Shown piece after piece: positions 7,097-64,000 of a stretch of 64,000 nt of DNA. Made by a program: the position numbers and the translations under genes. The DNA lies in the sequence record MZ560701; one strand, written 5' to 3'. Origin of the DNA: Escherichia phage vB_EcoM_TU01. Below the pieces are notes generated by a model. It was not told the origin of the DNA. It made no database searches and saw only the letters and a program-made list of their open reading frames with translations. How positions within the stretch are numbered: position 1 is the stretch's first letter; every line of letters starts with the position of its first letter.

Positions 7097-7783
7097 ATGA
7101 ATAGTTCTAAAGTGTTTAATAGTCAAGCTCGTGCAGTAGGTGGTTTTGCTGGCGGTATTTCTAATGATAAAATCAAAAACGAGCCTATGTTCTTNAACTG
7201 TAGTTTAGAATTTGCTTTTAATAATGGCGGNCCNATTACTCGTAGCTTCATCATGAACTTGCCGGATGATTGGAACACTGACCAGGTTGTATTTGATTCA
7301 CGAGTCCACATGCTGATGCCTGGTTGGTATCCTGCTATTCCTGGATATCACCATGANGACGTACCACGCCCTGATATTCCAGTTGGTCAACACTTTATTA
7401 CTGCAGGACAACCTGATTATGACAATCCTCGCTATTTGTCTGAACATATTCTTGGTCTTGTTAACGCTGACGTGTGTCCTACTCATTTTGCAACAGGAAC
7501 TGCAGAGTTCAGTCAGATTCCTGATGGCGAACTTATCTATCGTCAGTGGCACAAAGAAGTCCTCGAAAAAATTGAAAAAGGTGAACTAGAGAAATGGGAA
7601 GCTCCAGATCGTACTCTTCTTCAGTTTGATTGGCAAACATGGCACACNGGTTCTCGTGCAGTAAGTAATGGATGGCGCTGGTTCGGACGTGTATCTCGTA
7701 ATACAGACCGAGTTAAAAAGATTACCAATGAAATTCGTGTCAATGCTCAAGTTTATCTGGAATTCCCTATGGAAGGCTGGTAA
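7097..7783 (+). CDS. hypothetical protein (228 aa)
   Basis: ORF; HH-x-D...H residues noted but no fold assigned. Confidence 0.5.
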   Translation: MNSSKVFNSQARAVGGFAGGISNDKIKNEPMFXNCSLEFAFNNGXXITRSFIMNLPDDWNTDQVVFDSRVHMLMPGWYPAIPGYHHXDVPRPDIPVGQHFITAGQPDYDNPRYLSEHILGLVNADVCPTHFATGTAEFSQIPDGELIYRQWHKEVLEKIEKGELEKWEAPDRTLLQFDWQTWHXGSRAVSNGWRWFGRVSRNTDRVKKITNEIRVNAQVYLEFPMEGW

Positions 7784-8274
7784 TGATTAACAAAACATAT
7801 TGGTCTAATATAGACGATGGCAATGAAGGTATTTCATACTATTCAGTAGATTGGACAGGATGTCCATCCTACTTAGTGAAACATATTTGCCAAGAATTTA
7901 AAATCGACCAGCCAGCAGGTATTATCGTGAACAGATACATTAATGGATATCAACCTATCGATGAAGTAATACGAACAACTCAAGCTGAGCTTGAAANGTT
8001 TTTCAATAAGTGCCAATGGATAACAGGATGGATTATATTTGTACCGTCTATATGGTTTTTCAGTACTAAGGTGAGTTCTTTCGGTTTTGTTGATATTATT
8101 GCTATCTTATTAGCATCTAGTATCATAAGTGTTGTTGGTGGCATCATTGGCGGCGGTACTGCAGCCATCATTATTAATCTTGTTAAAAGTAGTTTACAGG
8201 AACGTAAAGACAAGATAAANGCCAAGAATAATGAAGTTGAACGTTTTATTACCGAATGCAGGAATTTGAGATGA
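7783..8274 (+). CDS. hypothetical membrane protein (163 aa)
   Basis: Hydrophobic core segments; start overlaps upstream stop. Confidence 0.5.
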   Translation: MINKTYWSNIDDGNEGISYYSVDWTGCPSYLVKHICQEFKIDQPAGIIVNRYINGYQPIDEVIRTTQAELEXFFNKCQWITGWIIFVPSIWFFSTKVSSFGFVDIIAILLASSIISVVGGIIGGGTAAIIINLVKSSLQERKDKIXAKNNEVERFITECRNLR

Positions 8275-17697: not shown

Positions 17698-17725
17698 AAT
17701 CCTACCAAAACAAATGGAGAACAAA

Positions 17726-17835
17726 ATGAAACTTTTGCTTATCGCTTATGTTGTAGTACAATACAATTATCCGATGTTTACTTATAACATGGTAAACGGC
17801 ATAGTGAATCTTATTGAAACGAGTATGGTAAAATG
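17726..17835 (+). CDS. small hydrophobic peptide (36 aa)
   Basis: ORF with ggag RBS. Confidence 0.3.
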
Positions 17836-18012
17836 ACCCGTGAACAAGCTAATAAATTGATGGACCTTATCCATGACTTACGTGAAGCCGATTCAGATTT
17901 GAATGATGTAGCTTATCATGCGGTAAATGATAACGGAGACTTTTATGAAAATCAGGTTGATGCTTGCCAGAATGCTTTGGTGAATTTTGTTGAAACTTTA
18001 ATTGGTGAATAA
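17832..18012 (+). CDS. hypothetical protein (59 aa)
   Basis: ORF. Confidence 0.45.
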
Positions 18013-35416: not shown

Positions 35417-35440
35417 GAACTCTTCGGAGTTCCTTTTTTG
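35416..35440 (+). terminator. rho-independent terminator
   Basis: ggaactc-ttcg-gagttcc then T6. Confidence 0.7.
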
Positions 35441-55322: not shown

Positions 55323-55510
55323 GCAAATTAACTAAAGTTACTTTTATCGGTTGGTTTAAAAGCGGTGAGATGTTCACTAAAGATATCATGTTATCAGGTG
55401 ATCGCGAAGAAATCGAGTGGGTTACGGTACAACTTGCTGAAGTGAACAAAGCATTAGTTAAAGCATTTGTTAATGACGAGAAAGTTTTTGAAGCTGATTT
55501 CAGAGGATAA
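55319..55510 (+). CDS. hypothetical protein (63 aa)
   Basis: ORF. Confidence 0.45.
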   Translation: MSKLTKVTFIGWFKSGEMFTKDIMLSGDREEIEWVTVQLAEVNKALVKAFVNDEKVFEADFRG

Positions 55511-55511
55511 T

Positions 55512-55724
55512 ATGTATTCAACTGTGTTTAAACCATCAACATACGAATTTGCATCAACTACACAATGGAAAGCTCTTATTCTGGAAGGATGGGAACTAAT
55601 GATGGATTGTGAAGCATCTGAAAAGTTTCCACACGGCAAAGTGGACTTCGTTAAATTTGCTGTACGTCCGACTAAACGACAGATTCGTCAAGAAAAACGC
55701 AAATTTCGCAAAAGTTTAAAATAA
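55512..55724 (+). CDS. small basic protein, RPTKRQ-tail family copy 3
   Basis: C-terminal AVRPTKRQIRQEKRKFRKSLK. Confidence 0.5.
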   Translation: MYSTVFKPSTYEFASTTQWKALILEGWELMMDCEASEKFPHGKVDFVKFAVRPTKRQIRQEKRKFRKSLK

Positions 55725-55726
55725 CT

Positions 55727-55756
55727 GTTTACAAGCACCACATACTGTGTTACTAT
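55727..55756 (+). promoter_or_regulatory. early promoter
   Basis: GTTTAC, 18 nt, TACTAT. Confidence 0.5.
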
Positions 55757-55784
55757 CTTTCTATCAACTACAGAGGAAATTGAA

Positions 55785-56153
55785 ATGAAAAAATTAATCG
55801 CTTTAGCAATGGTATTTGGATTAACCGGATGTGGTGCCCATGGCTTTATCCCTAATAACGTTGGCCAACTGATTTACAATCCGAATGTTAAACAGTATGA
55901 CCAACCTAAAGTTGAAGTGGAAGACCCGGTTACTGTAGGTAATCGAATGATTCAAGCTGATGCACATGCTCAACGTTATCGTGATTCTGATACTGTAGCA
56001 TTGTCAAAAGAACAACGCGTTAAAGAACATTGTCTACAGGCTACTGAAATCGCATTCATTCGCTATGTTGAAACAACTGGTAAAGAGCCTACCCAGAAAC
56101 AAATCGCGAATAACTACGTCCAGTGTATTGAACGTTTAAACAAATTTAATTAA
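55785..56153 (+). CDS. lipoprotein
   Basis: Signal peptide with lipobox LTGC (MKKLIALAMVFGLTGC). Confidence 0.65.
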   Translation: MKKLIALAMVFGLTGCGAHGFIPNNVGQLIYNPNVKQYDQPKVEVEDPVTVGNRMIQADAHAQRYRDSDTVALSKEQRVKEHCLQATEIAFIRYVETTGKEPTQKQIANNYVQCIERLNKFN

Positions 56154-56214
56154 TTGGTTTACGCCAAAGTTAAAACAAGATATTATAAACATAACAAATC
56201 AAGAGGAAATTAAC

Positions 56215-56463
56215 ATGGAATTATTCGTAGCTAGTTCAGTAGCGGTTTTAATTGCAGGTATTGGTTCAATCATCATTTACATGTTGCCTTGGGTAATCGC
56301 ACTTATTCGTGGCACAAAAAGCACAACAGCAATCTTCTTTGTATCTTTACTCTTTAACTGGACGATGGTTGGTTGGATTGGAACTTTAATTTGGTCTATC
56401 GTTGCCGAAAAGAAATCTGCTCAGCAGCCTCAACAAGTAATTATTATTCGCGAAAAAGAATAA
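56215..56463 (+). CDS. membrane protein (2 TM)
   Basis: Two long hydrophobic segments. Confidence 0.55.
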   Translation: MELFVASSVAVLIAGIGSIIIYMLPWVIALIRGTKSTTAIFFVSLLFNWTMVGWIGTLIWSIVAEKKSAQQPQQVIIIREKE

Positions 56464-56467
56464 ACTT

Positions 56468-56497
56468 GTTTACATTATAGATGGACTATAGTATAGT
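56468..56497 (+). promoter_or_regulatory. early promoter
   Basis: GTTTAC, 18 nt, TATAGT then AGTCCTATCAA. Confidence 0.5.
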
Positions 56498-56526
56498 AGT
56501 CCTATCAAATCAACTAAGGAGTTAAA

Positions 56527-56820
56527 ATGAAAAAGTTATCATTGGCAGCAATCTTACTTGCAGTATCATGTGCACCAGCTCCAGTTACGGCAGGTTATGA
56601 TAAAGACCTCTGTGAGTGGTCAATGACTGCAAATCAAGAAGATGTTGAACAACAAATCTTCTCTGATATCATGAACATCACTAAACGAGACCGTCCTAAT
56701 ATGGTTAATAAAGTTGTTGAACAACTTAAGTCTGGCGGTATCATGCAGTACAATTATGTTTTGTATTGTGACCCTAATTTCGATAACAAAGATATCGTAA
56801 CCGAAATCACAGGTGAATAA
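56527..56820 (+). CDS. secreted protein (97 aa)
   Basis: Signal peptide MKKLSLAAILLAVSCAPAPVTA. Confidence 0.55.
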   Translation: MKKLSLAAILLAVSCAPAPVTAGYDKDLCEWSMTANQEDVEQQIFSDIMNITKRDRPNMVNKVVEQLKSGGIMQYNYVLYCDPNFDNKDIVTEITGE

Positions 56821-56821
56821 T

Positions 56822-57472
56822 ATGATTTATTATATGCACAAAAATGCGCCATTTAAATATGGTAAATTTCCTAATGCACAATGTTATAATATAACGCCGA
56901 ATGAAAATAATAACGGATACCATATTGGTGTAATTTTTGTAATTGTTAAAGATAACGAAATCGTTGCCTGGGCAGATTTTAAAGGTACAACATATGATGT
57001 TAATCCAGTGCCTTTCACATATTACAACATAATGGATTTGGCATATGATTATAACTGGTTTAATCATGACGCGTTGGCTCATATTGAAGGTGTAGGATTT
57101 GACATCTCTTATTCTAGCTATTCATTATGTCCTATGAGCCGAGCTCACGGTAAAGATGCATCATATCTTTCAATTCGGAAACGTGTAAACTTCAAACGTA
57201 GCACAGAGTATGTTGGTGGACTCTTTGTTAAAGATAATAAAATAACCCGTATTAGTTATCCTTTAAGTGTAGGTCAAAAAGATGTTGATGTTGATTTAGA
57301 CTTAACCGAAAATAACATTAATCATATTGCTTCTGTATATTTTGATATCGATGAAAAAATTGTAGTGTGTGGATACGAATTACCACCTGAAGAAAAGGCT
57401 GAAGCAATTGAAGTCGAATTAGAAATTTCTGTTGATGACCAAATATTTAATGCATTTATGAATCGAGGTTAA
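56822..57472 (+). CDS. hypothetical protein (216 aa)
   Basis: ATG 56822; ORF. Confidence 0.5.
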   Translation: MIYYMHKNAPFKYGKFPNAQCYNITPNENNNGYHIGVIFVIVKDNEIVAWADFKGTTYDVNPVPFTYYNIMDLAYDYNWFNHDALAHIEGVGFDISYSSYSLCPMSRAHGKDASYLSIRKRVNFKRSTEYVGGLFVKDNKITRISYPLSVGQKDVDVDLDLTENNINHIASVYFDIDEKIVVCGYELPPEEKAEAIEVELEISVDDQIFNAFMNRG

Positions 57473-57690: not shown

Positions 57691-58158
57691 ATGGGTATTA
57701 TTAACACTGCAATAGATTCTGTTTATGCATATAAGTTTATTAGACTAATGCAAAAACCTTTTACCGAATGGAAAGCGTACGAAGCCAAAATCATAGATGA
57801 ACGTGGAAGTGTTCTTAAACGTCCTTCTACTCCCGAAGAGAAAGCGGCGTATACACCTTTTCATGCTTCAGTTCGTTCAATGAAGCGAATGATGAGCACT
57901 GTTCCAGGTCTTAATGGAATGGCCTCAATGATGTCTGCCTGGAGTGCTGTAGCTTCACGCTATAACATTACGGAAGAACAACAGAAAGAAATATTTAAAG
58001 AACTCCCTTTATTTGAGGATATGGTTGCTGGTGATTCAGGCGGTANTCCTCAAGCTATTGCATCAGGAACAACTACAGGTGCAGTCGTAAATAAAGGTCC
58101 AGAACAAATTCCTTCCAAGAAAAGAAAGCGAATTAAAGTAAATATTAATAAGTTGTGA
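57691..58158 (+). CDS. hypothetical protein (155 aa)
   Basis: ATG 57691 after ggagg RBS. Confidence 0.5.
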   Translation: MGIINTAIDSVYAYKFIRLMQKPFTEWKAYEAKIIDERGSVLKRPSTPEEKAAYTPFHASVRSMKRMMSTVPGLNGMASMMSAWSAVASRYNITEEQQKEIFKELPLFEDMVAGDSGGXPQAIASGTTTGAVVNKGPEQIPSKKRKRIKVNINKL

Positions 58159-58197: not shown

Positions 58198-59220
58198 ATG
58201 GCTGAATGGATAGATAATGAATTTGCTTATCGTGCGTTTTCTCACCTACCTCGTTTTAGACAAATCAATAATTCAAGCACATTTAAATTAACATTTCGAT
58301 GTCCAGTTTGTGGCGACTCCCAGACAGATGCAATGAAAGCTCGCGGATGGTATTATGGCGGTACTCCTGGTAATGTACATTGCTATAATTGCCAATACCA
58401 CAATACAATTTCCGGATACTTAAAAGAGTATGATGAAGAGCTTTATCGCGAATATCTAATGGAAGTTCGTAAAGAAAAAGCTAGAATGGAACCAAAGATT
58501 GAAAAGGTTCCTGAACATAAACCAGAACCGGAGAAAAAGACTATAAATTCTTTGCCGTCTTGTTCTCGTCTGGACAAGCTGCCTGAAGAGCATCCTATTG
58601 TGAAATATGTTAAGACTCGATGCATTCCTAAAGAATCATGGAACAGATTATGGTTCACATTAGAATGGCCCAAATTGGTCAACAAGATTCAACCTGGTAC
58701 GTATAAGAAAGAGATTCCCGAACCACGTTTAGTGATTCCTATTTTTAATAAAGATGGGAAGGCTGAGTCATTCCAAGGACGTGCACTTCGTAAAGATGCT
58801 CCTCAGAAATATATCACTATTAAAGCGTTTGAGTCTGCAACAAAAATTTATGGTGTTGAACGTGTTAAGGAAGGAGACGTCTGGGTAATGGAAGGCCCTA
58901 TTGATAGTTTATTCATACCCAATGCAATCGCTATTACAGGCGGCTCAATAGATTTAGATGTGGTACCATTTAAAGAACGTCGTGTATGGGTAATGGATAA
59001 TGAACCTAGGCATCCGGATACTATAGCTCGCATGAAGCGATTAGTTGATGCAGGCGAACGTGTCATGTTCTGGGACCGAGCTCCATGGAGATCAAAGGAT
59101 GTGAATGATATGGTAATGAAAGAAAATGCAACACCACAAGAAATTTTAGAATATATGAAACAGAATATTTCAAGTGGGTTGCATGCTAAAATGAGATTAT
59201 CTCGTTATTCGAAGATTTAA
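58198..59220 (+). CDS. 61: DNA primase gp61
   Basis: Zinc-binding CPVCGDS...CYNC N-terminus, Toprim-like core; 340 aa. Confidence 0.9.
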   Translation: MAEWIDNEFAYRAFSHLPRFRQINNSSTFKLTFRCPVCGDSQTDAMKARGWYYGGTPGNVHCYNCQYHNTISGYLKEYDEELYREYLMEVRKEKARMEPKIEKVPEHKPEPEKKTINSLPSCSRLDKLPEEHPIVKYVKTRCIPKESWNRLWFTLEWPKLVNKIQPGTYKKEIPEPRLVIPIFNKDGKAESFQGRALRKDAPQKYITIKAFESATKIYGVERVKEGDVWVMEGPIDSLFIPNAIAITGGSIDLDVVPFKERRVWVMDNEPRHPDTIARMKRLVDAGERVMFWDRAPWRSKDVNDMVMKENATPQEILEYMKQNISSGLHAKMRLSRYSKI

Positions 59221-59414
59221 ACAAGCCCTATAATAGCAAAGGCCAAATCAACTACAGTATCCAATGGAACAGAAGGAACCATAACACCATTAGCAACTAA
59301 CAATGGTGCAATCCCGAAGTTCCATGAAATAATGCCACCTACAACTATTGCAGCGATAGCAGTTTTCTTTTTATTGCCTTTAATAGCGTTGATTAACGAT
59401 GGAAGTTTAAACAT
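59217..59414 (-). CDS. small membrane protein on the opposite strand (65 aa, 2 TM)
   Basis: Minus-strand ORF with strong aaggagat RBS 5 nt before ATG; no + strand ORF occupies this interval. Confidence 0.55.
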   Translation of the reverse strand: MFKLPSLINAIKGNKKKTAIAAIVVGGIISWNFGIAPLLVANGVMVPSVPLDTVVDLAFAIIGLV

Positions 59415-59442
59415 AATATCTCCTTAGTTACCTATTATTTAT

Positions 59443-59469
59443 TACGCTTTATAAAATTAATGTTAGAAT
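59443..59469 (+). promoter_or_regulatory. middle-type promoter (GCTTTA, 12 nt, TAGAAT)
   Basis: Upstream of gene 56. Confidence 0.4.
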
Positions 59470-59502
59470 TAACTCTCTTATACTGAATTGAAAGGAAAAA
59501 TA

Positions 59503-60024
59503 ATGGCACACTTTAACGAATGTTCACAACTTATTTCTGGTGTTGATAAAGCAGAAGAAGCTTATTTTAATGCTCTGATTCACGAAGATAAAGACCCACT
59601 GCAGGTAATGCTTGATATGCAGAAATCTTTACAGGTTCGTCTGGCAAATGACAAGCCTGAACATAACAAACATCCTGATGAATTGGCCACTGCTGGTGAT
59701 GTTGTTGATTGGCTGCGTAATCAGAAAGATTATATTGATGATGAATTCCGTGAACTGCTGACTTCACTTGGTGGTATGAGCAATGGCGAAAAAGCCGCTA
59801 GCTCTGTATGGAAGCCGTGGAAAGCACAACATGCTGAATATCGAAATCGTCGTATCGATGAACTGTCTCCTGAAGACCAGCTTGAAATTAAATTCGAGAT
59901 GATTGATATNCTGCACTTTGTTCTGAATATGTTCCAAGGTCTGGGTCTTTCGGCTGAAGAAATCTTTAAACTTTACTACTTGAAAAACCAACACAACTTT
60001 GAACGCCAGGATAATGGTTACTGA
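59503..60024 (+). CDS. 56: dCTPase/dUTPase gp56 (MazG-like)
   Basis: MAHFNEC...DPLQVMLDMQ...DELATAGDVVDWLR...IDDEFRELLTSLG closely matches T4 gp56. Confidence 0.9.
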   Translation: MAHFNECSQLISGVDKAEEAYFNALIHEDKDPLQVMLDMQKSLQVRLANDKPEHNKHPDELATAGDVVDWLRNQKDYIDDEFRELLTSLGGMSNGEKAASSVWKPWKAQHAEYRNRRIDELSPEDQLEIKFEMIDXLHFVLNMFQGLGLSAEEIFKLYYLKNQHNFERQDNGY

Positions 60025-60030
60025 TTAAGT

Positions 60031-60038
60031 TATAAATA
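60031..60038 (+). promoter_or_regulatory. late promoter TATAAATA
   Basis: Exact motif about 30 nt upstream of the soc start, as expected for a capsid gene. Confidence 0.5.
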
Positions 60039-60069: not shown

Positions 60070-60306
60070 ATGGGTGGTTATGTTAACATCAAAACCTTTA
60101 CGCATCCTGCTGGTGAAGGCAAAGAAGTTAAAGGTATGGAAGTTTCTGTACCGTTTGAGATTTATTCAAACGAACATCGGATTGCAGATTCTCATTACCA
60201 AATCTTTCCGTCAGAAAANGCAGCTTATTCTNNTGTAGTTTCTGATGCAGCNACTTGGAAAACTAAGAACGCTGCAATGTTTACGCCTACANNANTAGGT
60301 GGTTAA
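60070..60306 (+). CDS. soc: small outer capsid protein Soc
   Basis: GYVNIKTF...HYQIFPSExAAYS resembles T4 Soc; about 78 aa. Confidence 0.8.
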   Translation: MGGYVNIKTFTHPAGEGKEVKGMEVSVPFEIYSNEHRIADSHYQIFPSEXAAYSXVVSDAXTWKTKNAAMFTPTXXGG

Positions 60307-63277: not shown

Positions 63278-64000
63278 ATGTTATCAAATAATAAAATTAA
63301 CAAAATCAATCGTCGTCTTGACCACACCAGAGCTTCTGCGAAGAGACGCTCTAAGGATTTTAACTTAGACTTTAATTACCTTAAAAACATTCTTGATCAA
63401 AAGGTCTGCGCTTACTCAGGTGAATCTTTCAATAACTCTGTTGAAGGTGAGAAATTATCCTTAGAACGTTTTAATAATGATATAGGCTACATTAAAGGTA
63501 ATGTCATCCCAGTTAAGAAAAAATATAACACGGCTCGTTCTGATTTAACATTAGAAGAACTTATTGAGAAACGTGACGCNATTGCAAGACGTATCGCTAA
63601 TCCTTCTGCCCGTAAAGTAGAGAAACTTAATCTCGACGAGAAGAAATGGGCCCAAATTAAAAAGGTTTATGGTACTATTTTAAAAATCCGAGCAAAACGT
63701 GAAAATCGTGTTAAGCATATGGCGAACATGATGAAAAATCAACCTTTATCTAACGAATCTAAACTTAGAATTGTTGCTTTGAAAGCACGCATTAATGGAT
63801 CACATCAAGCAGAAGGCCATGAACTTACTAAACTCAANGTTCTTCTTAAAGGCTCTGACTGGAAAACTAAAACTAAATTAACTGACGCTGAATCGCTTTT
63901 CGATACATATGATAAAGTTATCCAAGGTCTGCAACGTTTTGAAAAGATCGGTTTCATNGGTAAATTAAAATTGAAACGTGGCTTACCACTTAGCGCATCN
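63278..64000 (+). CDS. HNH-family endonuclease-like protein (Mob-like), partial at window end
   Basis: LERFNNDIGYIKGNVIPV resembles the DRxxNxxGYxxxNV signature of phage HNH homing endonucleases; ORF runs off the window. Confidence 0.4.
   Translation, partial: MLSNNKINKINRRLDHTRASAKRRSKDFNLDFNYLKNILDQKVCAYSGESFNNSVEGEKLSLERFNNDIGYIKGNVIPVKKKYNTARSDLTLEELIEKRDXIARRIANPSARKVEKLNLDEKKWAQIKKVYGTILKIRAKRENRVKHMANMMKNQPLSNESKLRIVALKARINGSHQAEGHELTKLXVLLKGSDWKTKTKLTDAESLFDTYDKVIQGLQRFEKIGFXGKLKLKRGLPLSAX

Follow-up and report, generated by a model that had tools for sequence, protein, structure and literature searches.

The late promoter of phage T4 is an 8-bp TATAAATA box at positions -13 to -6, and of the 50 T4 late promoters in a published list, 32 match it perfectly and 9 carry A at -13, which is the commonest variant (PMC2988020). 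In RB69 and its relatives, conservation at -13 is poor (PMC1524935). RB69 also carries RB69ORF029w, which was counted among the open reading frames (ORFs) without a T4 match (Nolan 2006), and for whose product TMHMM predicts a single transmembrane (TM) helix at residues 21-41 and SignalP is negative (Nolan 2006 Additional file 2). Here we describe a member of this gene family in a 64,000-nucleotide stretch of Escherichia phage vB_EcoM_TU01 (sequence record MZ560701; hereafter the window), where a 65-codon ORF lies on the minus strand between genes 61 and 56 (Table 1). By sequence, the window is that of an RB69-like Mosigvirus, a 901-bp window probe being 99.6% identical to phage PTK and ~99% identical to many other phages. 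The overall best explanation of our observations, and one that we consider reasonably probable, is that the ORF is a small gene specific to the Tevenvirinae that is expressed late and encodes an inner-membrane protein. The gene family itself is already known, as it appears under the name hypothetical in hundreds of T-even-type genomes, and finding the ORF is not new; the by-products of the analysis are a corrected gene map, a T4 copy that has not been annotated, a conserved sub-consensus late box, and a set of relatives in prophages.

Conservation and distribution of the gene

Profile comparison places the ORF in the RB69ORF029w family (PHROG 2024), residues 1-65 matching profile positions 1-65 of 65 with an E-value of 1.9e-26. 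Homologues are found by tblastn in 692 phage records, ~155 of them at more than 80% identity and ~535 at ~54% or less, and the lower band, which includes T4, is made up mostly of Tequatrovirus with Gaprivervirus also present. Within the family, the window protein is 95-100% identical to annotated Mosigvirus proteins, a second comparison giving 98.5-100%, and has ~54% identity with its counterparts in T4 and RB51, and the window gene agrees with the other members in its length, its position between gene 61 and gene 56 or dam, its opposite strand and its upstream box, with no difference. Annotators have given these genes names such as RB69ORF029w, RB32ORF030w and VR7ORF033w and have always called the product hypothetical. 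The window protein has no match in Pfam (E up to 10), NCBIfam or PADLOC, and a HMMER search over 1.84 billion representative proteins yields seven hits, all of which are T4-like and one of which (P0075) is an artefact that is discussed below; the family is therefore narrow.

A homologue is situated between gene 61 and dam or gene 56, on the opposite strand, in Mosigvirus, Tequatrovirus (T4), Gaprivervirus (CJ20, TH41) and Dhakavirus (KIT01). The same locus and strand are seen in Gelderlandvirus (STP4-a, Proteus phage), Moonvirus, KPV15-type Klebsiella (Jiaodavirus-like) phages and divergent metagenomic T4-like contigs, and the locus is likewise present in RB69, Shf125875, RB51, OE5505 and Moon. 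Conservation hence extends to at least seven genera, and the lack of conservation in related phages that the first-pass annotation had named as speaking against the ORF is clearly not borne out. The 4-nt overlap of its stop codon with that of gene 61 recurs in T4, RB51, OE5505, Moon, STP4-a and KIT01. Other phages have a different junction (loci L048 and L050-L053). In Slopekvirus, Krischvirus and Yersinia phage JC221, only 11-14 nt separate gene 61 from gene 56 downstream of it, and the family hidden Markov model (HMM) finds nothing. It also finds nothing at the 61/56 junction of Karamvirus fGh-Ecl01, which holds a 94-aa + strand "MazG-like" ORF, or at that of Aeromonas phage ZHF, which holds an endonuclease V. 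Because the contents differ in this way across phages, the 61/56 junction is, on these sequence comparisons, a site of recurrent gene insertion, and the ORF itself looks like an acquisition within the Tevenvirinae.

The status of the ORF as a gene rests on conservation rather than on length, since open frames of 65 codons are no rarity in DNA this rich in AT: minus-strand ORFs of at least 60 aa number 81 in the window, and the length of this ORF is by itself not significant. For the ratio of nonsynonymous to synonymous substitution rates (dN/dS), the better-sampled pairs within genera give 0.05-0.15 and other within-genus pairs up to ~0.4, with one near-identical pair that is too close to inform giving 0.66, and between genera, where synonymous sites are saturated, the ratio is ~0.14-0.39. 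Within-group differences at first, second and third codon positions number 12/0/22, 63/19/140 and 52/12/60, so that third positions differ more than first, and first more than second. Moreover, M1, L7, W31, P37 and G43 are invariant in 15 diverse proteins, N32, P47 and L64 are nearly so, and a GGAGG or AGGAG Shine-Dalgarno sequence is present in all 12 lineages that were compared. Judged by these alignments, the reading frame evolves under purifying selection. The alternative that this antisense frame is an accident of the spacer between two genes and encodes nothing is almost certainly wrong. A 65-codon open frame does have a probability of ~1% per start in AT-rich DNA, and long minus-strand frames are as numerous in the window as stated above, but the alternative is refuted by the dN/dS values below 1, by the strong ribosome-binding site, by the conserved promoter box and by the fact that place, length and protein motif are kept in at least seven genera.

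The local layout agrees in most respects with the first-pass annotation, which had described a 65-aa minus-strand ORF at 59217-59414 as the only clearly coding minus-strand gene in the window. The ORF is present with 65 codons from its ATG; the strong ribosome-binding site ascribed to it is there, at a spacing of 5 nt; the interval holds no + strand ORF of at least 60 aa, the only one inside it having 31 aa; and the ORF does converge on the primase gene, the two stop codons overlapping. Among minus-strand ORFs of at least 40 aa that lie almost wholly (98%) outside + strand ORFs of at least 60 aa, it is the sole one that is coding-like, a comparison that leaves aside a 50-aa minus-strand ORF at 63805-63957, which has no + strand overlap. 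In the annotated relative Shf125875, the homologue is the sole opposite-strand coding sequence of 64 in 33 kb.

Promoter and expression

A late-promoter-type box, NATAAATA or ATTAAATA, precedes the ATG by 12-33 nt in 12 of the 12 lineages, and the sequence flanking these boxes is otherwise unalignable among lineages. The box reads AATAAATA in the window, RB69, RB51, KIT01 and locus L034; GATAAATA in T4, OE5505, L011 and L014; CATAAATA in Gaprivervirus and L017; and tATTAAATA in Moon and STP4-a. At the level of the motif, then, the gene has the TATAAATA-type box in its vicinity that is looked for in a late gene. Sites of the form NATAAATA number 12 in the window, both strands included (128 kb), and VATAAATA is strongly depleted, with 6 seen against 21.4 ± 4.2 expected on both strands; the occurrence of a box within a stretch of 40 nt in every lineage is far beyond chance. 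Stray late-promoter boxes may have been selected against, which would fit the depletion of VATAAATA. Position -13 of the box is never the consensus T in ~12 lineages and varies among A, G and C, which suggests selection for weak late expression.

We found no sigma-70-like site on the minus strand between 59415 and 60200. The nearest upstream MotA-pattern site is on the + strand and serves gene 56, corresponding to the RB69 prediction Pm:16038 with a score of 21.6 (Nolan 2006 Additional file 4), and a loose minus-strand match to the MotA pattern is located further upstream, inside gene 56 (59528-59552). As the first-pass annotation had proposed, the region upstream of the ORF meets the gene 56 promoter, the MotA-type site directly adjoining the late box. 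These motifs make it most probable that the ORF has a weak promoter of the gp55 type and is expressed late, with a short leader and a strong Shine-Dalgarno sequence; the position of the box predicts a start site at ~59430 and a leader of ~16 nt. This arrangement resembles that of T4 late genes located in early regions, such as soc, in which a TATAAATA-type box likewise stands shortly before a strong Shine-Dalgarno sequence. It differs from them, however, in two respects. The box of soc is consensus whereas that of the ORF departs from the consensus at -13 in every lineage (A, G, C, or ATTAAATA), and the ORF is read against the direction of the early and middle genes beside it.

The absence of a terminator between the ORF and gene 61 in the window implies that a late transcript would probably continue antisense into the 3' end of gene 61. 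It might thus be transcription itself that is selected, either as a late antisense RNA that silences gene 61 mRNA or as divergent promoters that aid oriA through R-loops. Antisense read-through is made likely by the missing terminator and the overlapping stop codons, T4 oriA is annotated ~1 kb away in gene 56 (16763), and this origin is reported to be more active late, with R-loops at late promoters having been proposed as cryptic origins (PMC3016281). Nevertheless, we regard a role for the transcript alone as very improbable. The amino-acid sequence is under purifying selection and keeps its invariant residues despite synonymous saturation, the strong Shine-Dalgarno sequence is conserved, and in two metagenomic lineages (L011, L014) a hairpin directly after the ORF stop codon would stop antisense read-through. 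Furthermore, the segment 58900-59700 contains no Rfam family, and the fold 3' of the ORF is unremarkable (z-score -1.0). A type I toxin-antitoxin arrangement would call for an antisense RNA antitoxin, encoded in cis or in trans, and no Rfam RNA was found in 58900-59700.

Several further observations were made on promoters in the window. The perfect late box of soc is an internal positive control for late promoters in this phage, and it forms with the box of the ORF a pair of late-type promoters that flank gene 56 on opposite strands within ~600 bp. Exact TATAAATA sites number six in the window, all six on the + strand, and at least three of them (775, 27718, 60031) are in intergenic gaps. For the MotA-type pattern GCTTTA-N11-13-TANNNT, 20 sites are found where 3.1 are expected, and most of them are on the + strand and have a TAnAAT -10 element; examples are the sites at 35440, 38673, 45644, 49220, 50818 and 59446 (+).

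The encoded protein

Basic residues in the predicted product are all N-terminal (K3, K12, K15-17), the acidic ones are solely D52 and D56, and the protein ends in ...AFAIIGLV with no charged C-terminal tail. The AlphaFold2 model (pLDDT 81) has helices at residues 3-11, 15-41 and 51-62. Only one full hydrophobic span is present, at ~18-41, and the 12-residue C-terminal helix at 51-62 contains D56. Taken together, these features predict a 65-aa inner-membrane protein with its N-terminus inside and one full TM helix, the C-terminal helix being unable to span the bilayer. The two-TM hydrophobic peptide of the first-pass annotation is thus a membrane protein, as was claimed, but its second hydrophobic element is this short helix and not a second TM segment. 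The conserved motif WN[FY]-x3-P-x5-G-x3-P..[DE] is placed in the outer half of the TM helix and in the loop. In fold searches with the AlphaFold2 model, BFVD gave no family other than that of the protein itself, and the PDB gave no match.

The TM segment might alternatively belong to a signal peptide, in which case signal peptidase I would cleave off the N-terminal 41 residues and free a 24-residue hydrophobic peptide to the periplasm or the outer leaflet. The residues around the putative cleavage site have some of the expected character, with small residues conserved at -1 (A, S, T) and -3 (A, L) and a Pro at -5, before a conserved [HN]G. There is little chance that this is correct, however, because residues 21-41 of RB69ORF029w are predicted to form a TM helix, the hydrophobic region of ~23 residues holds the invariant WN[FY] and is atypical of signal peptides, and the 96-aa relatives described in the next section do not keep the AxA pattern. 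We have set the signal peptide aside in view of the negative SignalP result published for RB69ORF029w.

Relatives in enterobacterial prophages

A scan of IMG/VR identified proteins of 96 residues (e.g. WP_023328017, P0085, P0086) whose C-terminal 43 residues are homologous to the ORF family, with an hhalign probability of 97.9% and an E-value of 4.9e-13, and which match PHROG 2024 with an E-value of 4e-11. Such proteins are frequent in prophages of E. coli, Klebsiella, Serratia, Pectobacterium and Citrobacter, where annotators have without exception labelled them hypothetical. Like the T4-type proteins, they have a TM helix, a Pro-rich loop, a short helix and the motif WNY..P....G...P..PL[DE]. 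They differ in having an additional N-terminal amphipathic helix and an acidic linker of ~45 residues, and in the context of their genes, which stand at the end of siphovirus-type prophages after the tail-tip genes. In the prophage-end blocks that we compared, from E. coli and other Enterobacterales chromosomes (loci L040 and L043-L045) and from IMG/VR (L028-L039), the order is tail tip, DUF8377, a 90-aa protein, a GH24 lysozyme on the opposite strand, a SegE-like GIY-YIG protein, a 189-aa protein, a 103-aa protein, the 96-aa protein and, again on the opposite strand, a KAP NTPase that PADLOC assigns to PDC-S20. The 90-aa protein has a TM helix and a coiled coil and matches the holin PHROG 1296 and DUF2730 weakly, and for its 189-aa and 103-aa neighbours in the block PHROG and PADLOC gave no match and phages no informative one.

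These relatives bear on two roles that might be considered for the ORF. The first is that of a true holin, or a pinholin-like hole former that depolarises the membrane, distantly related to the 3-TM family PF11351 (GTA_holin_3TM). The OE5505 orthologue has the name "Holin" in UniProt, PF11351 is matched below threshold (12-17 bits, best E 0.003) by 22 of the 30 proteins scanned from the 96-aa group, the prophage genes are ~1.4 kb from a GH24 lysozyme gene, and the window gene would encode a small membrane protein with, on our prediction, late timing. The PF11351 scores fall short of the gathering cut-off of 24.8 bits, however; they are equalled by the unrelated PrgI and are not improved by a consensus query, and neither the T4-type proteins nor the family consensus have a Pfam hit at E up to 10. 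In addition, holins of class II would be expected to have two or more TM helices, and those of PF11351 three, with a charged, hydrophilic C-terminal tail, whereas the ORF product has a single full TM helix and no such tail. T4 mutants defective in t do not lyse, so a redundant holin would not be expected either. We consider a hole-forming function improbable. As to the link through PF11351, the scores of the 30 members and the consensus stay at the level of unrelated families, and we rejected it; we regard the UniProt label as unsupported too.

The second role is that of a late superinfection-exclusion or envelope-protection factor that acts against DNA entry or lysis-from-without by secondary phages, in the manner of Imm, Sp and prophage "moron" proteins. 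The ORF product is a small inner-membrane protein whose conserved motif is predicted to face the periplasm, its 96-aa homologues are encoded at the distal end of prophages beside a KAP-NTPase defence gene (PDC-S20), which is a typical moron location, and in Mosigvirus sp and imm are close by, within 3 kb. Against this, imm and sp of T4 are early genes and the promoter of the ORF is solely of the late type. There is no homology to Imm or Sp, T4 Sp matching a separate + strand ORF (Table 1) and imm being annotated separately in Shf125875; neither the 65-aa protein nor its 96-aa relative has a PADLOC match; and the 96-aa gene ends an operon that has no assigned function. An exclusion factor of this kind is, in our assessment, unlikely.

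More generally, holins and pinholins, PF11351, and the T4 proteins Imm, Sp and RI are like the ORF protein in size and membrane location and, for holins, in late timing. Unlike them, however, the ORF is not linked to lysis genes, and it has no significant sequence or fold match to any of them. The first-pass annotation had suggested a toxin, a holin-like protein or an exclusion factor; profile scans and PADLOC gave no significant match of the ORF protein to toxin, holin, exclusion or defence families.

Possible roles

For a late inner-membrane protein specific to the Tevenvirinae, which is the explanation that we prefer, we propose the following sequence of events. The ORF would be silent early and, once replication has started, would be transcribed by RNA polymerase with gp55, gp33 and gp45 from a deliberately sub-consensus late promoter, so that the transcript level would be low. 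The mRNA, with its leader of ~16 nt, would be translated efficiently. The basic N-terminus (K12, K15-17) would then remain in the cytoplasm, one TM helix (~18-41) would cross the membrane, and the Pro-rich loop and the 12-residue hydrophobic C-terminal helix would be located at the periplasmic leaflet. We suppose that the protein would work by binding another membrane protein through the motif on its periplasmic side and not by bulk membrane damage; the location of the invariant motif at the outer half of the membrane argues for the former.

As to what such binding might achieve, we suggest only tentatively that the protein is an accessory of holin T, of antiholin RI or of the spanins and modulates late envelope events such as the timing of lysis or its inhibition. 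It is rather unlikely, in our view, that this low-abundance late inner-membrane protein of T4 and its close relatives is a missing player in late envelope control, either as a partner of T and RI in lysis inhibition or as a late exclusion factor. If it were, the absence of the gene from the T4 reference annotation would explain its escape from annotation-based studies and screens, and the invariably sub-consensus promoter would serve to control the dose of a potent membrane effector. Should the ORF prove to belong to lysis-inhibition signalling, phage biologists would take an interest in it; if not, it would be one more small accessory gene.

Several points weigh against the explanation that we prefer and against its extension to lysis. 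The variants with G or C at -13 (T4, Gaprivervirus) are rarer than the A variant among known late promoters. The RB69 late-promoter HMM (31 sites, Nolan et al.) lists no site for RB69ORF029w, and the searchable literature, including the ORF names, T4 small-protein and ribosome-profiling work, and start-site and antisense maps, yielded no transcript, protein or phenotype data for the gene. Moreover, frameshifted or truncated copies occur in a few T4-type assemblies (P0068, P0071, P0073), with sequencing error being possible, and such copies indicate that the ORF is probably dispensable in laboratory propagation. A role in lysis has no support from homology, the window protein being without a match in Pfam or NCBIfam, and the protein does not have the charged C-terminal tail typical of holins. 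Lysis in T4 is also already accounted for by known genes.

The T4 copy and the gene order

The T4 orthologue is intact and encodes 66 aa at positions 17738-17938 of NC_000866 (2239-2439 of our locus L003), with a 4-nt overlap with the stop codon of gene 61, a GATAAATA box at 17709-17716 and a GGAGG Shine-Dalgarno sequence. The RefSeq record NC_000866 leaves the 309-bp gap between dam and 61 without annotation, and for this reason RB69ORF029w was counted as having no T4 match (Nolan 2006); a Pyrodigal-based T4 record does call the orthologue. Work that relies on the RefSeq annotation will have missed the gene.

Four Logan assemblies of the T4 dam-61 region (SRR27475519, SRR27475520, SRR24798469 and SRR24798472; loci L007-L010) are peculiar in that every C on one strand reads T, a conversion that gives the changes A>V, S>F, P>L, T>I and H>Y and turns codon 3 into a stop. 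To judge from this pattern, they resemble T4 DNA that had undergone bisulfite or deaminase conversion and was then assembled and translated like a genuine protein cluster, and P0075 would accordingly be a database artefact.

The first-pass annotation had located the ORF where T4 has 61.1, dmd and dam, and this placement was mistaken. The T4 genes follow one another, in the direction of transcription, as 41, dmd, 61.4, sp, 61.2, 61.1, 61, the ORF orthologue on the opposite strand, dam and 56; in T4 only dam, of the three, stands between 61 and 56, and T4 has the ORF as well. Similarly, of the genes that could not be found in the first pass, dmd and the small 61.x genes are detected upstream of gene 61 by tblastn with the T4 proteins (Table 1), and the ORF therefore does not replace them, but dam, for which the same search finds no homologue in the window, is indeed absent from it. 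The 270 N bases that are scattered in the window give rise to X residues in translated ORFs, for example those of genes 56, soc and 61.1.

Table 1. Positions of the ORF, its putative expression signals and the surrounding genes in the window
Feature	Position	Strand	Basis or remark
dmd homologue	55328-55507	+	tblastn with T4 protein
61.4 homologue	55512-55721	+	tblastn with T4 protein
sp homologue	56527-56817	+	tblastn with T4 protein
61.2 homologue	56822-57469	+	tblastn with T4 protein
61.1 homologue	57994-58137	+	tblastn with T4 protein
Gene 61, DNA primase, convergent neighbour	58198-59220	+	74% identity to T4 gp61; primase in annotated relatives
TTAA shared by the stop codons (TAA of gene 61, TAA of the ORF)	59217-59220	both	sequence
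RB69ORF029w-family ORF, 65 aa, ATG start	59217-59414	-	ORF listing; product MFKLPSLINAIKGNKKKTAIAAIVVGGIISWNFGIAPLLVANGVMVPSVPLDTVVDLAFAIIGLV
Shine-Dalgarno sequence AAGGAGAT	59418-59425	-	5 nt from GGAG to ATG at 59414
Late-promoter-like box AATAAATA	59436-59443	-	consensus TATAAATA, A at -13; 21 nt before ATG
MotA-type middle promoter for gene 56, GCTTTA-N12-TAGAAT	59446-59469	+	abuts the late box, back to back
Gene 56, dCTPase, divergent neighbour	59503-60024	+	72% identity to T4 gp56
Consensus late promoter TATAAATA of soc	60031-60038	+	31 nt before soc ATG (60070)
soc homologue	60070-60306	+	~650 bp from the RB69ORF029w-type ORF

Mosigvirus genomes carry imm and imm.1 between sp and dmd, as seen in Shf125875 (7539-8217 of locus L046), and the corresponding region of the window is 55721-56527. 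In these phages sp, imm and the RB69ORF029w-type ORF are all found within ~3.5 kb.

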